From: a virus
Taxonomy: Duplodnaviria; Heunggongvirae; Uroviricota; Caudoviricetes
Direction: 5' to 3' (one strand)
Length of the DNA stretch: 11,137 bases
IMG/VR virus record: IMGVR_UViG_2541047596_000006
Shown here: positions 3,526 through 8,933 of the stretch, piece by piece
Layout of the letters: every line of letters begins with the position of its first letter
Position numbering within the stretch: position 1 is the first letter of the stretch
The notes under the pieces: model-generated
Seen by the model: only the letters and a program-made list of their open reading frames with translations
Told to the model about the DNA's origin: nothing
Databases searched by the model: none
Translations under genes and position numbers: made by a program

Positions 3526-3831
3526 ATACAGCGAACTCCATTGGTTTAGTTGGATATTTACTGTGCTGGACAAAAACGGTTTGCGGGGAAATCTTAGTTA
3601 AGTAGAATGACTGCGGGTGCTTGAGGCTATCTGCCTCGGGCATGGACACCAACGGCAGATAGAGAAAAGCCCCAGTTAACATTACGCGTCCTGCAAGACG
3701 CTTAACATTAATCTGAGGCCAATTTCATGCTAGACACATGTAGGTTAGCCTCTTACGTGCCGAAAGGCACGGAGAAGCAGGCTATTGTTAACACCAAGCT
3801 GTAATGTCCCCTTTGAACCATTCTAAAATGT

Positions 3832-3858
3832 CCCCAGACAATTCTCTGGGGGATTTTT
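3832..3858 (+). promoter_or_regulatory. Terminator-like hairpin (CCCCAGA-caattc-TCTGGGG followed by GATTTTT) directly upstream of the transposase ATG; its 3' arm contains the likely ribosome-binding site
   Basis: Seen in sequence: a 7-bp stem (5 GC pairs) and a T5 run ending 2 nt before the ATG at 3860. The GGGGG that would serve as Shine-Dalgarno is inside the stem. Insertion sequences commonly use such a structure to block read-through transcription or translation of the transposase. Confidence 0.4.
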
Positions 3859-3859
3859 C

Positions 3860-5173
3860 ATGATCAAAGAGACTGTTACGATGAGTCATAAGGAACTCCA
3901 CCGACTTCAGATTATTCAGGAACAAGCTGCGGCACGCATTGGCATTTCTATTCGGCAGGTTAAACGTCTGGTGCAACGGTATAGAAATGAAGGGCCTTCT
4001 GGTCTGGTTTCCCACCGACGTGGAAAGCGTCCTAATAATTCCTTTTCTACTGAATTCAGAGCAACAGTAATTTCACTCCTCAAAGGCCGTTACGCTGATT
4101 TTGGACCTACGTTTGCGTGCGAAAAATTGCGCGAGATACACGGTTTATCTTTATCCGTTGAAACTCTCAGAAAGTGGATGATAGAAGAGGGGTTATGGCG
4201 TGAACGCCGTCGTAAAATTGCCCGTATATATCAACGCCGCATGCGACGACCATCTTACGGTGAACTGATCCAGATTGATGGCTCACCTCATGACTGGTTT
4301 GAAAATCGAGGCCCCAGATGTACACTGATCGTTTTCATTGATGATGCCACCAGTGCGTTGATGGCGTTGCGTTTTGTGCCTGCTGAAACAACCCGGGCTT
4401 ACATGGAAACCCTCCGGGGTTACCTTAATGATCATGGCGTACCGCTCGCTCTCTACTCTGATAGACACAGTATATTCAGGGTAAATAACCCAGAGCGGGA
4501 AGGTGAGCTGACCCAGTTCACTCGTGCGATAAAGACACTGGGCATCGAGCCAATCCATGCCAACAGCCCGCAGGCAAAAGGGCGGGTAGAGCGCGCCAAT
4601 CAGACACTACAGGACAGGCTGGTCAAAGAAATGCGGCTTCAGAATATCAGTGATATTGAAACAGCAAATGCATGGTTGCCGACCTTTATTGAAGCCTATA
4701 ACAACCGGTTCGCTACGTCGCCTCGTACTACTGATAATGCTCATCTTGATGTGCACCATTCTGAAGAGGAACTGGGTTATATCTTCAGCCTACAGGCGAA
4801 GCGCGTTCTGTCTAAAAATCTCACTTTCCAGTACAAAAGCAGTGCGTTTCAGGTACGCAGTGAGGGCCGGGGATATCGACTTAGGCATTCGGTTGTTACT
4901 GTATGCGAGAACTTTGACGGTGAAATTAACGTTCTGTATGACGGGAAAGCGCTGGGCTGGGAAAAGTATGTTGATGGCCCGGAGCCTATACCACTGGATG
5001 ATGAAAAGAGTGTCCATGAACGAGTGGATAATGCCCGTATTGATTTACGCTCAAAATACTATGTTAAACCTAAAGCTGACCATCCCTGGCTTACGCGCCG
5101 AACGCAAAGTCATCAGCAAGTTAAGCCCCCGAAGTTACCTAAAAAGAAGCCTGATCCCGATAAAAAAGATTGA
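3860..5173 (+). CDS. DDE transposase of the rve/integrase-core superfamily with N-terminal helix-turn-helix; most consistent with the ISNCY (IS1202 group) or IS481 family
   Basis: 437 aa. N-terminal helix-turn-helix (...RIGISIRQVKRLVQRYRNEG...). Catalytic core with D (LIQIDGSPH), D (LYSDRHSIF) and E (KGRVERANQTLQ) at the spacing typical of retroviral-integrase-like transposases. Basic C-terminal tail. Met8 (MSHKELHRL) is an alternative start. Confidence 0.85.
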   Translation: MIKETVTMSHKELHRLQIIQEQAAARIGISIRQVKRLVQRYRNEGPSGLVSHRRGKRPNNSFSTEFRATVISLLKGRYADFGPTFACEKLREIHGLSLSVETLRKWMIEEGLWRERRRKIARIYQRRMRRPSYGELIQIDGSPHDWFENRGPRCTLIVFIDDATSALMALRFVPAETTRAYMETLRGYLNDHGVPLALYSDRHSIFRVNNPEREGELTQFTRAIKTLGIEPIHANSPQAKGRVERANQTLQDRLVKEMRLQNISDIETANAWLPTFIEAYNNRFATSPRTTDNAHLDVHHSEEELGYIFSLQAKRVLSKNLTFQYKSSAFQVRSEGRGYRLRHSVVTVCENFDGEINVLYDGKALGWEKYVDGPEPIPLDDEKSVHERVDNARIDLRSKYYVKPKADHPWLTRRTQSHQQVKPPKLPKKKPDPDKKD

Positions 5174-5564
5174 AACCAAGATCGATTCGGTTGAGTGCAT
5201 ATCCATTCATAGGGTAGATTCTTAAGTCGCGTTTCTGGTGTTCATTTTCGGGTGGTTTGTTACTTGTTTTACCGGGGATATGCCAGAAACGCGCTGAGTC
5301 AGTCTGGGCGGTGCGCGTAATGAGGCGTTATGGTAAATAGCCTATGCTAATGTCCGCTAAGAGCAAGAAGCGGAAGTTGGCAGTTTTGTGGACTGTCCCC
5401 ACAAAAGTGACTACAGAAATAGTTGCAATTCATAATTGATCATGGGTTGTCAGTTAAACTCGTGGCGATTTAAATAGACTAATTGGGAGTGCGTCCATTA
5501 CTTATATCTTGTAATGTTAACTATCAGAAATGATACAAAGATAATATGTCTTTAAAGAAAAGGC

Positions 5565-5595
5565 TGATGGCGAAAAGTGGCCCGATGAGGGCCAC
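5565..5595 (-). terminator. Rho-independent terminator downstream of flxA
   Basis: Plus-strand GTGGCCC-gatga-GGGCCAC (5577-5595) is a 7-bp GC-rich stem. On the minus strand it is followed by a T-rich tract. It lies about 15 nt past the flxA stop. Confidence 0.5.
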
Positions 5596-5609
5596 AATAC
5601 GGCTGTCAC

Positions 5610-5942
5610 TTAGACGTAAATATCAATGGTGCCAGCGGTATTTGTATCGTCTTTTTTCTCTTCTTTTTTATCAGGCTGAACTGTCGCGTCTTCATTCTTT
5701 TTCTCTGCCTGCTGCCTTAACAACTGCTCCAGTTGAGCCCAGAGGCTTTCAATTTGCTTCTGTACCAATGCAGCCATTTCTTTTTTCTGCTGTGTCGTCA
5801 TCCCCTCTTCCGATGAGATTTTCCCAAGCTTTTCAGTCAGCACCTGAATTTGTCTTGTGATTTTGGCTATTTCTGATGTTCCTTCCGGGGCGGAGTTGTT
5901 TGAAATAACGGTTGAGGTATTTCCCTGAATTGTGACAGACAT
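5610..5942 (-). CDS. flxA: FlxA (sigma-28-dependent flagellar-regulon protein encoded in the Qin prophage)
   Basis: The 110-aa product MSVTIQGNTSTVISNNSAPEGTSEIAKITRQIQVLTEKLGK...TIDIYV matches my recollection of E. coli FlxA in length and sequence. Shine-Dalgarno AAAAGGAGA sits 7 nt upstream. A sigma-28-type promoter lies just upstream. Confidence 0.85.
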   Translation of the reverse strand: MSVTIQGNTSTVISNNSAPEGTSEIAKITRQIQVLTEKLGKISSEEGMTTQQKKEMAALVQKQIESLWAQLEQLLRQQAEKKNEDATVQPDKKEEKKDDTNTAGTIDIYV

Positions 5943-5965
5943 AGATTTCTCCTTTTAAAAAAGCA

Positions 5966-5992
5966 CTATCGGCATGCACAAAAAAATCTTTA
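5966..5992 (-). promoter_or_regulatory. Sigma-28 (FliA) class promoter for flxA
   Basis: On the minus strand TAAAGATT-N11-GCCGATAG, against the FliA consensus TAAAGTTT-N11-GCCGATAA (14 of 16 positions, exact 11-nt spacer). The -10 element lies about 25 nt upstream of the flxA ATG. Confidence 0.6.
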
Positions 5993-6144
5993 ATCGTATT
6001 TCTTGTGTCATTAATTGTTTGATGTTCAGATTGTTTTCCTCGCGGGCTGGCGCGCCTCAGAAAGTAAAGCTTGTTGACAGGGGTAAACGTTCGGCAATAA
6101 TTTTCTGCCGCATGCGGGTGTTGCATAAAACGTGTTACGTTCCT

Positions 6145-6450
6145 TTATCGACAGGTCAGGTCACCGCTCACCCGCCGACGAGAAAGCAACACTGACATGC
6201 TAAAGCAAAAAATAGATGAATAAGTTGAGTTGTGCATATGTAGCCTGACCGTCACAAAGTATATGGTGTCTGTACCAGTAAGATGATGGCCGGACTCTTT
6301 AAAAACGAGCAGACCTGCACAATACAGGATGGACTTAGCAATGGCTGCTCCTGGCACAAAGCGGACAGTGATCACCGTTCTTACGACTACTTTCTGACTT
6401 CCTTCGTGACTTGCCCTAAGCATGTTGTAGTGCGATACTTGTAATGACAT
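6145..6450 (-). CDS. Hypothetical ORF between flxA and relB (ydfV-like position and length); coding status doubtful
   Basis: 101-aa ORF in the position where E. coli K-12 annotates the 101-aa ydfV between relB and flxA. The composition is atypical and there is no recognisable domain. Confidence 0.25.
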   Translation of the reverse strand: MSLQVSHYNMLRASHEGSQKVVVRTVITVRFVPGAAIAKSILYCAGLLVFKESGHHLTGTDTIYFVTVRLHMHNSTYSSIFCFSMSVLLSRRRVSGDLTCR

Positions 6451-6463
6451 TTGTAATTACAAG
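6411..6463 (+). promoter_or_regulatory. relBE promoter with overlapping operator palindrome
   Basis: TTGCCC-17nt-GATACT is a sigma-70-like -35/-10 pair. The inverted repeat CTTGTAAT-gacatttgta-ATTACAAG (6438-6463) contains two TTGTAAT hexads and overlaps the -10 element, consistent with RelB/RelE autorepression. Confidence 0.6.
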
Positions 6464-6474
6464 AGGTGTAAGAC

Positions 6475-6714
6475 ATGGGTAGCATTAACCTGCGTATTGA
6501 CGATGAACTTAAAGCGCGTTCTTACGCCGCGCTTGAAAAAATGGGTGTAACTCCTTCTGAAGCGCTTCGTCTCATGCTCGAGTATATCGCTGACAATGAA
6601 CGCTTGCCGTTCAAACAGACACTCCTGAGTGATGAAGATGCTGAACTTGTGGAGATAGTGAAAGAACGGCTTCGTAATCCTAAGCCAGTACGTGTGACGC
6701 TGGATGAACTCTGA
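6475..6714 (+). CDS. relB: RelB antitoxin (type II toxin-antitoxin)
   Basis: The 79-aa product MGSINLRIDDELKARSYAALEKMGVTPSEALR... is near-identical to my recollection of E. coli RelB. Its stop overlaps the relE start (TGATG). Confidence 0.95.
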   Translation: MGSINLRIDDELKARSYAALEKMGVTPSEALRLMLEYIADNERLPFKQTLLSDEDAELVEIVKERLRNPKPVRVTLDEL

Positions 6715-7001
6715 TGGCGTATTTTCTGGATTTTGACGAGCGGGCACTAAAGGAATGGCGAAAGCTGGGCTCGACGGTACGTGAACAGTTGAAAAAGAAG
6801 CTGGTTGAAGTACTTGAGTCACCCCGGATTGAAGCAAACAAGCTCCGTGGTATGCCTGATTGTTACAAGATTAAGCTCCGGTCTTCAGGCTATCGCCTTG
6901 TATACCAGGTTATAGACGAGAAAGTTGTCGTTTTCGTGATTTCTGTTGGGAAAAGAGAACGCTCGGAAGTATATAGCGAGGCGGTCAAACGCATTCTCTG
7001 A
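6714..7001 (+). CDS. relE: RelE toxin (ribosome-dependent mRNA interferase)
   Basis: The 95-aa product MAYFLDFDERALKEWRKLGSTVREQLKKKL...VISVGKRERSEVY matches E. coli RelE and is translationally coupled to relB. Confidence 0.95.
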   Translation: MAYFLDFDERALKEWRKLGSTVREQLKKKLVEVLESPRIEANKLRGMPDCYKIKLRSSGYRLVYQVIDEKVVVFVISVGKRERSEVYSEAVKRIL

Positions 7002-7072
7002 ACCAAAGCATGACATCTCTGTTTCGCACCGAAGGTGACACTTCTGCTTTGCGTTGACAGGAGAAGCAGGCT

Positions 7073-7228
7073 ATGAAGCAGCAAAAGGCGATGTTAATCG
7101 CCCTGATCGTCATCTGTTTAACCGTCATAGTGACGGCACTGGTAACGAGGAAAGACCTCTGCGAGGTACGAATCCGAACCGGCCAGACGGAGGTCGCTGT
7201 CTTCACAGCTTACGAACCTGAGGAGTAA
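7073..7228 (+). CDS. hokD: Hok-family type I toxin (HokD/RelF), 51 aa
   Basis: Not in the supplied ORF track (under 60 aa). My translation is MKQQKAMLIALIVICLTVIVTALVTRKDLCEVRIRTGQTEVAVFTAYEPEE: an N-terminal transmembrane helix and the conserved Hok C-terminal half. It is the third gene after relBE, as in Qin. Confidence 0.85.
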   Translation: MKQQKAMLIALIVICLTVIVTALVTRKDLCEVRIRTGQTEVAVFTAYEPEE

Positions 7229-7296
7229 GAGACCCGGCGGGGGAGAAATCCCTCGCCACCTCTGATGTGGCAGGCATCCTCAACGCACCCGCACTT

Positions 7297-7327
7297 AACC
7301 CGCTTCGGCGGGTTTTTGTTTTTATTT
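7297..7327 (+). terminator. Rho-independent terminator ending the relBE-hokD transcript
   Basis: AACCCGC-ttcg-GCGGGTT stem-loop followed by TTTTTGTTTTTATTTT. Confidence 0.6.
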
Positions 7328-7438
7328 TCAACGCGTTTGAAGTTCTGGACGGTGCCGGAATAGAATCAAAAATACTTAAGTAGCGCGCAGGGATAAGAGG
7401 GATGGTCCCTTAAGGGTAAAGGGATTGTTCTGGATGAA

Positions 7439-8306: not shown

Positions 8307-8606
8307 AAAAATTCCTTAATACTGATAACTTGGCGCACTATACACACGTTCCTGAAGAAAGCTATAGTTTTTTGATGGGGTTGAAGATGGCTGGATGTCT
8401 AAAATAAACATTGCTTCATATGTTCAACTATGCGTTAATGATTGCGTCGGTTTGAAGAACAGACGATATACGAAGTAGTTTACTAAAGCAGTTCTCATTT
8501 CAGGTGTTATTCACTTATTCCTTCTTTGAGTCTCTCCAATTAAGTACGAAGTCGTTTCTGTTATGCAAACCATTTATGCCGAAAGGCTCAAGTTAAGGAA
8601 TGTAGA

Positions 8607-8822
8607 ATGTCAAATAAAATGACTGGTTTAGTAAAATGGTTTAACGCTGATAAAGGTTTCGGCTTTATTTCTCCTGTTGATGGTAGTAAAGATGTGTTTG
8701 TGCATTTTTCTGCGATTCAGAATGATAATTATCGAACCTTATTTGAAGGTCAAAAGGTTACCTTCTCTATAGAGAGTGGTGCTAAAGGTCCTGCAGCAGC
8801 AAATGTCATCATTACTGATTAA
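8607..8822 (+). CDS. cspB: Cold-shock protein CspB, 71 aa
   Basis: [67 protein letters not shown]... has the canonical RNP1 (KGFGFI) and RNP2 (VFVHF) motifs. A long upstream untranslated region (about 300 nt to cspF) is typical of cold-shock genes. Confidence 0.9.
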
Positions 8823-8933
8823 AATTCATCGCTCGTCTGTATACGATAACGAAGAAGGCTGATGCCTGAGTAGAGATACGGACAGAGTAGTGAATATTGG
8901 ATCTCTTTAATAAAAAGTAAGGAGGTCCAATAC

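Follow-up and report, generated by a model that had tools for sequence, protein, structure and literature searches.

The stretch of DNA analysed here (the window; 11,137 nt, from the Caudoviricetes record IMGVR_UViG_2541047596_000006) belongs to a Qin-like lambdoid prophage and carries a gene which an earlier note, made from the letters alone, had described as an insertion sequence (IS)-like DDE transposase with undefined ends. Comparison with prophages, phages, plasmids and complete genomes leaves us confident that this gene is part of an ISEsa1-type transposon of the IS1202 family, which carries cargo, measures 3,274 bp and extends from position 3786 to position 7059 (Table 1). The transposon has entered the prophage's hokD gene where translation is initiated, leaving an orphan leader with sok on its left and hokD on its right.

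The element is bounded by left and right terminal inverted repeats (IRL and IRR). When the reverse complement of IRR (TGTCAACGCAAAGCAGAAGTGTCACCTT) is set against IRL, 21 of the 28 positions match, and both ends begin with TGT. An alignment of plasmid and genome copies, with more than 20 left flanks, shows that the common sequence begins exactly at 3786 (TGTTAACACCAAGCTGTAATGTCCCC...). Immediately outside the two ends lies a 15-bp direct repeat, GGAGAAGCAGGCTAT, which is present at exactly two positions in the window (3771 and 7060), the copies being identical, and which empty sites carry once. Such empty sites are found in the E. coli prophages L084 and L085, where a hok leader 94-99% identical to that of the window runs straight into hokD-rem-ydfU-ydfT. 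BLAST comparison of the window with these prophages gives two blocks, one to 3785 and the other from 7059, with a 16-nt overlap in the uninterrupted locus. Comparison with uninterrupted prophages had been proposed in the earlier note, and it places the insertion junctions at 3785/7060. In a phage collection, at least 14 of the listed phages have leader and hok contiguous within approximately 362 bp; PhiR42_1, a phage from ECOR13, is the only listed one with the whole insert (99.9% identity). Since the two flanks are contiguous in the empty sites, and since IRR and the 15-bp repeat are present, we take the mobile unit to be 3786-7059.

The earlier note had found neither clean ends nor a target duplication. 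This holds inside 3790-5420, where no usable terminal inverted repeat pair or target duplication was found, but not for the element as a whole. The sequence common to copies that differ in their right-hand neighbours ends at 5364-5376, where there is a small hairpin, and the search of the 5376 region failed to yield a right end because the true one is located some 1.7 kb further on. Three candidates in this area were considered and dropped. An IRR-like sequence at 5270-5301 matches the IRR of a Hahella relative at 16 of 26 positions (hand alignment), and was discarded as a right end within 5170-5420 once the empty sites had been found together with the true IRR and its adjoining duplication (7032-7074). 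The hairpin ending at 5376 was set aside as a transposon end on the same grounds (true IRR, duplication, empty sites), 5376 being where the transposase module gives way to cargo. Lastly, GAGAAGCGGA, at the end of the left module, was tried as a decayed copy of the left-flank duplication; it matches at only 9-10 of 15 positions, and is never identical. No duplication follows the 5364-5376 point in any of the contexts compared, in accord with the published account of ISEsa1 as an element without one.

The sequence on the left of IRL is a complete hok leader. Rfam model RF01794 (named "sok", in practice the hok mRNA leader) matches 3615-3786 over its full length (1-157 of 157) with 104 bits against a gathering score of 59; the last three letters of its consensus are AUG, where the window has AU|U, the bar marking exactly the start of IRL. 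The idea that this sequence might be the 3' end of a hok locus was rejected, as the Rfam alignment shows a 5' leader ending at AUG. It is 99% identical to the leader which directly precedes hokD in L085. No hok open reading frame (ORF) follows the transposase gene although the element sits on a hok start codon; the leader (3615-3785) and the hokD ORF, which are contiguous in L084, L085 and the phages, are separated in the window by the 3,274-bp insert. The hokD gene is now found 72 nt downstream of relE, directly behind the relBE pair of the transposon, and it retains a ribosome-binding site, as both the Shine-Dalgarno sequence and the AT of the ATG are part of the duplication. Every insertion of this kind in a hok gene would strip it of mok/sok control and would create a relB-relE-hok operon.

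The transposase scores 456 bits (cut-off 250) against the NCBIfam model NF033594, "ISNCY family transposase", residues 14-368 aligning with positions 7-365 of the 368 in the model. The earlier description of an IS-like DDE transposase in a Qin-like prophage is borne out. There are lesser matches to IS481, IS21 and IS3 models, and the Pfam matches are HTH_32, HTH_29 and rve_3. Residues D140, D161, D162, D201, E244 and Q251 are invariant among 10 homologues, down to 36% identity, their catalytic roles being assigned by motif alone. They conform to the signature described for the IS1202 family, namely D, DD, D, E and a Q seven residues after the E (bioRxiv 10.1101/2022.12.17.520857). Between the two enterobacterial classes of the transposase the ratio of nonsynonymous to synonymous substitutions (dN/dS) is 0.09. 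Alignment with plasmid copies reveals that the gene of the window has suffered an in-frame deletion of 27 bp, which takes ESINRHITQ out of the N-terminal DNA-binding region. This segment is retained by nine of the nine aligned relatives, and since the transposase of the window is without these nine residues this copy of the transposon is probably immobile. In E. coli complete genomes which are 100% identical to the window over 3600-5600 the gene is annotated as "ISNCY family transposase" plus "ydfW", while the 446-residue form with the 27 extra bases is named by PGAP "IS1202-like element ISEsa1 family transposase". A terminator-like hairpin precedes the gene and may shield it from outside read-through, for example from the hok promoter; a role of that promoter in driving the transposase gene is unsupported, with this hairpin intervening.

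The further copies for which the earlier note had suggested a search do exist, and matching ends were found on IncF, IncI and IncHI2 plasmids and in other genera. A perfect 15-bp repeat is present in the window and at five other sites. The unit with the cargo of the window recurs as a 3.3-kb element in the hok locus of an IncF plasmid (L002, pEnt261; duplication GGAGAAGAAGGCCAT) and in the pnd locus of a Salmonella IncI plasmid (L004; duplication TGGAGGGGCTATGAT), and thus flxA, ydfV and relBE are seen enclosed by the inverted repeats at three sites, counting the window. The window unit and the copies in other replicons are 99.4-99.7% identical, with different 15-bp duplications. Other cargo lies between matching ends in L087, L089 and L037. 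The first of these (CP032294.1, 11258-24100), on an IncFII/IncR plasmid, is 12,843 bp long, is flanked by GGAGAAGAAGGCCAT and includes ncrYCBA, chrBA, other genes and relBE. The second, on an IncHI2 plasmid, is 6,093 bp long with the same duplication, GGAGAAGAAGGCCAT, and includes a nested ISEsa2, cytochrome b, a CDF transporter and relBE. The third is a 4.28-kb element at a non-hok site of the Scandinavium hiltneri chromosome (4550-7173), with the duplication CATTAAGCTGCAAAT and the same IRR tip, and without relBE; in the place of that pair, judged by eye from the ORFs, it has a DUF1778-like/GNAT-like toxin-antitoxin pair, a hexapeptide acetyltransferase and a GrpB-like protein. L075, likewise at a non-hok site, has a degraded transposase gene plus relBE, and its duplication (GGATTCACGACGGAT/GGATTCACAGCGGAT) has two mismatches. 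The relE-IRR module as such was found on 676 plasmids from many genera.

A more distant relative is present in Hahella as at least 10 identical 1,449-bp copies in one genome, with clean 28-bp inverted repeats, duplications of 15-16 bp and a transposase 62% identical to that of the window. Its IRL is homologous to the sequence at window position 3786, for which reason the left end can be called canonical, and the IRR is homologous too. By analogy with this multicopy relative, the transposase of the window would cut its target with a 15-bp stagger. In Hahella sp. SMD15-11 (L026, 2929-5849) two of the 1,449-bp copies stand in tandem, approximately 17 bp apart, the second in or adjoining the target duplication of the first.

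Comparison of the copies divides the element into three modules, for the transposase (3786-5376), for variable cargo and for relBE plus IRR. In place of the cargo seen in the window, other copies have ncrYCBA with chrBA (12.8 kb) or ISEsa2 together with cytochrome b and a CDF transporter (6.1 kb), and both outer modules are kept. The IS110-family element ISEsa2 sits, in the IncHI2 copies, at the position of the hairpin which ends the left module (L089, 15677-17178), and this hairpin may be a site of cargo exchange or an IS110 target site. A little upstream, the perfect 11-bp inverted repeat which the earlier note had reported (CGCGTTTCTGG/CCAGAAACGCG at 5228 and 5283, the first arm 55 nt downstream of the stop codon) is indeed present; its stem does not vary even between elements with no more than approximately 72% identity in the transposase gene, and the loop motif TTCGGGTGGTTTGTT is conserved too. 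No compensatory changes or covariation were seen in this stem, which, being invariant, is uninformative on RNA structure. The possibility that 5228-5376 is a second hok-leader-like sequence was dropped, since Rfam finds nothing there even at E=10. The direct motifs near the presumed ends were likewise as reported, with AATGTCCCC at 3803 and 3827 and CTGTCCCCA at 5393.

The hokD gene is not the only hok gene to have been entered in this manner. A full-length hok-leader model ends at base 1 of IRL in the window and L016, L004, L006/L087, L010/L022, L013, L024, L039 and L089; further hok-start cases were recognized by eye in L015, L038, L020 (in the opposite orientation) and L021, which has two elements at a hokD site, one behind the IRR of the other. 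In the last of these (Leclercia sp. EMC7, 2889-2960) 10 bp (GAAGGCTATG) separate relBE-IRR from the IRL of the second element, a diverged one (73% class), and this looks like the outcome of repeated insertions at one hokD start. At least seven diverged hok loci have been entered at the same nucleotide, give or take one. The hok leaders are mutually 57-90% identical as compared with 90-100% for the transposon left modules; the leaders having diverged while the left modules are this close, these must be separate insertion events at the same nucleotide (±1). In a sample of one genome per species approximately 12 of 20 distinct left junctions are at hok starts. The transposase thus appears to prefer the Shine-Dalgarno-ATG sequence of hok genes.

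It might be argued that the repeated leader/IRL junctions reflect no target choice at all, and are due to homologous recombination between hok loci or to the survivorship of insertions which disarm a toxin. The hok loci are homologous, and recombination between them is conceivable; insertions outside hok might be lost more often; and three plasmid types have one 15-mer, GGAGAAGAAGGCCAT, in common. Most pairs of leaders are, however, only 57-74% identical, which is too diverged for efficient homologous exchange, and at each insertion it is the local 15-mer that stands duplicated on the two sides. Selection alone would not yield junctions at one nucleotide (±1), and the non-hok insertions with a 15-bp duplication (L037, L075) tell us that true transposition occurs. 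We therefore regard this explanation as improbable, and retain target preference.

Two other explanations concern the nature of the element itself, and to both we give very little credence. The earlier note had suggested a non-canonical or a single-copy, possibly domesticated, transposase, and in the strict form of this proposal the gene would be without functional ends. It is true that most E. coli have one copy of the gene per genome, that the ORF is intact in hundreds of genomes, and that the deletion allele predominates (approximately 537 genomes against 258). While the observation that there is nearly always a single copy stands, domestication does not agree with the same ends at many sites and replicons, or with near-identical copies at different sites, in several replicons and genera. 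That identity is high among the copies in E. coli is due to the prophage locus which they share and is no sign of long-term conservation, and the deletion, which removes residues retained in all relatives, resembles decay more than new function. Neither lost ends nor a fixed orthologous locus across taxa, the features of domestication, were found. Nor is the element non-canonical, since it has normal TGT inverted repeats and a perfect 15-bp duplication; the earlier note had itself named canonical inverted repeats and a target duplication as the findings that would refute its proposal, and these features are present.

The other explanation is that an ordinary ISEsa1 of 1.6 kb (approximately 3786-5367/5376), with no duplication, lies beside flxA-relBE-hokD genes which are native to the prophage. 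ISEsa1 is catalogued as an element of 1,609 bp with 15/22 inverted repeats, a 439-residue transposase and no detectable duplication, and within the IS1202 family it has been assigned to a small "no duplication" subgroup (Harmer & Hall 2023, PMC10132070); the stop at 5364-5376 of the sequence common to contexts with different right neighbours would suit such an element. Yet flxA-ydfV-relBE is absent from prophages and phages in which the hok site is unoccupied, the perfect duplication brackets 3786-7059 and not 3786-5376, and none of the contexts compared shows a 1.6-kb unit flanked by a duplication of its own. Furthermore, the distance from IRL to ISEsa2 in L089, 1,610 bp, matches the catalogued length of ISEsa1, which suggests that the catalogued end is an artefact.

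The transposon of the window and ISEsa1 are alike in the kind of transposase, in their enterobacterial hosts and in a left end with TGT, a comparison made by catalogue description and PGAP name; the 446-residue plasmid protein less its first seven residues has 439, the catalogued length. They differ in that units of the window type measure 3.3-12.8 kb and have 21/28 repeats, a 15-bp duplication, and relBE and cargo inside; the catalogued limits of ISEsa1 (approximately 1.6 kb, 15/22 repeats, no duplication) do not describe the element in the window. The catalogued right end coincides with the boundary between transposase module and cargo or with the ISEsa2 junction, and in L089 the module sequence resumes after ISEsa2. 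The ISEsa1 entry of 1,609 bp thus probably covers the left module only, and may end at such a junction.

As regards the IS1202 family as a whole, the element has the profile match with a helix-turn-helix at the N terminus, the catalytic signature, and imperfect TGT repeats of approximately 24-28 bp. Members of the ISTde1 subgroup have direct repeats of 15-17 bp (bioRxiv 10.1101/2022.12.17.520857), and the window element, with its 15-bp duplication, agrees with that subgroup in repeat length. The resemblance extends to the TGT termini, inverted repeats of approximately 24-28 bp, a DDE triad with two extra D residues and the Q at E+7; unlike the window element, ISTde1-type elements have no reported target specificity or relBE cargo, and Harmer & Hall put ISEsa1 in a separate subgroup. 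The ISAba32/ISAjo2 subgroup of the same family, which includes the passenger-carrying ISKpn21, shares oriented site-specific insertion, with IRL towards a short target, and some of its members carry passengers; but its targets are XerC/D sites (dif/pdif) and its duplications are 5-6 bp, as opposed to the hok Shine-Dalgarno-ATG and 15 bp here. A parallel outside the family is provided by Tn3-family transposons with type II toxin-antitoxin genes (Lima-Mendez et al. 2020, PMC7157771), in which the pair keeps a fixed place adjoining the ends or the genes for transposition and the remaining cargo is variable, as here. The transposase family and mechanism are different, the window element has no resolvase or res site, and its relBE adjoins IRR.

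A number of points weigh against the interpretation favoured here. That the element is mobile is deduced from comparative data only, and at many loci the retrieved flank was too short to include IRR. Eight of the approximately 20 distinct left junctions are outside hok loci, and the choice of target is therefore a strong preference and no absolute rule; survivorship or sampling bias could, formally, lie behind the predominance of hok. The mis-delimitation of ISEsa1 is a suggestion drawn from the values in a published table, and co-transcription of relBE and hokD across IRR is a prediction.

The neighbouring gene order (flxA, relB, relE, hokD, cspF, cspB, lysis genes) is that given in the earlier note, which had also placed the transposase gene at the position of the immunity region. 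The latter was mistaken. The intact Qin-like phage PhiR42_1 has the order cI - cro - cII - O - LygF - methyltransferase - ... - hok leader - transposon - hokD - rem - ydfU - Q, with cI/cro approximately 4 kb to the left of the transposon, upstream of O, LygF and the methyltransferase gene. Collinearity of the window with this phage begins at 1540, which is inside LygF/DUF977, and extends to 7416, a second collinear stretch setting in at 7411; at the junction 1540-1545 the int side (integrase, 20-1315, and an excisionase-like ORF) joins the middle of the LygF/DUF977 gene. The genes exo, dicB, ydfABC, cI/dicA, cro/dicC, cII and O, present in PhiR42_1 and L084, are missing from the window. Since collinearity starts only at 1540, the immunity and replication genes were lost by a separate deletion and not by the transposon. 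A second deletion of approximately 2.18 kb relative to L001 and PhiR42_1, at 7411-7416, took away rem, a hypothetical gene, ydfU and the 5' part of Q (ydfT), which is why the window contains a Q remnant. Two Rfam matches to the right of the transposon may be recorded. The cspA thermoregulator match at 8446-8838 (159 bits) spans the 5' untranslated region and gene of cspB, as expected for Qin cold-shock genes, and a sub-threshold match to the small RNA IsrK just downstream of hokD (7237-7318; 25 bits, gathering score 50, E=0.046) is probably due to chance.

E. coli K-12 matches the window only at 4989-7416 (99.9%). It has kept IRR and the right-hand duplication, and is without IRL and the hok leader; of the transposase gene it has lost the first 1,129 nt, and the remaining 185 nt are fused to ydfX as ydfW. 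The K-12 order flxA-ydfW-ydfX-dicC is therefore the product of a deletion which reaches ydfX, and with IRL, the leader and most of the transposase gene deleted the transposon is not recognizable from K-12 alone. In this strain hokD (relF) follows relBE, presumably without mok or sok. Insertion of the transposon, followed by such a deletion, would explain the "relBEF" arrangement without mok/sok. Among 5,426 complete E. coli genomes the IRR/hokD junction is present in 1,168 and the leader/IRL junction in 784, the intact transposase allele in 258 and the deletion allele in approximately 537.

Table 1. Positions of the transposon, its component parts and the hok sequences on either side in the window
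Feature	Position	Strand	Remarks
Whole transposon	3786-7059	+	IRL, transposase gene, flxA, ydfV, relB, relE, IRR
Left copy of 15-bp target-site duplication, GGAGAAGCAGGCTAT	3771-3785		hokD Shine-Dalgarno sequence through AT of ATG
Right copy of 15-bp target-site duplication, GGAGAAGCAGGCTAT	7060-7074		Provides hokD Shine-Dalgarno sequence and AT of start codon
IRL, TGTTAACACCAAGCTGTAATGTCCCCTT	3786-3813	+	
IRR, AAGGTGACACTTCTGCTTTGCGTTGACA	7032-7059	+	Beyond relBE
Complete hok mRNA leader (mok/sok regulatory region)	3615-3785	+	Ends at AT of hok start codon
hokD (relF) toxin ORF, 51 residues	7073-7228	+	Annotated as hokD, WP_000813254.1, in identical genome
Terminator-like hairpin and T-run	3831-3852	+	8 nt upstream of transposase ATG; consensus scan only
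DDE transposase gene, IS1202 family (ISNCY, ISEsa1-like), 437 residues	3860-5173	+	27-bp deletion allele
Site of in-frame 27-bp deletion	3908-3921	+	Between imperfect 11-bp repeats ATTATTCAGGA and ATTACTCAGGA
Inverted repeat with 11-bp arms CGCGTTTCTGG/CCAGAAACGCG	5228-5293		Arms start at 5228 and 5283; conserved loop motif TTCGGGTGGTTTGTT
Hairpin at end of left module, consensus TGTCCGCT-N10-AGCGGACA	5351-5376		Exact point of cargo divergence (right-side alignment, >8 contexts)
Variable cargo segment	5377-6346		flxA and most of ydfV in the window
flxA	5610-5942	-	
ydfV	6145-6450	-	
Right module (relB, relE, IRR)	6347-7059	+	91-99% identical in all relBE-bearing variants whatever the cargo
relB	6475-6714		Right module
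relE	6714-7001		Right module

No prior description of hok targeting by ISEsa1, or of a transposon origin of relBE-hokD, was found in the literature searched, and within it the re-delimited ISEsa1-type elements with their 15-bp duplication, the preference for hok starts and the origin proposed for relBE-hokD appear to be new. Taking the evidence together, we think it likely that ISEsa1-type elements are modular transposons which prefer, in one orientation, the Shine-Dalgarno-ATG region of hok genes, stripping these of mok/sok and placing them behind relBE; that in K-12 relBE(F) consists of cargo of the transposon joined to a captured hok; and that the same vehicle moves nickel and chromate resistance, and further genes, among IncF, IncI and IncHI2 plasmids and lambdoid phages. 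L087 is an example, its element being the vehicle for nickel (ncrABCY) and chromate (chrBA) resistance on IncF/IncR plasmids. Should the limits of ISEsa1 have been set wrongly, a widespread cargo transposon would escape annotation pipelines. For the IS1202 family these elements would represent a second kind of site-specific targeting, with hok start regions besides XerC/D sites. For E. coli K-12 they would provide a concrete origin for a hokD (relF) gene which stands without mok/sok behind relBE, and the type I hok and type II relBE addiction systems would be linked through a mobile element with metal-resistance cargo.

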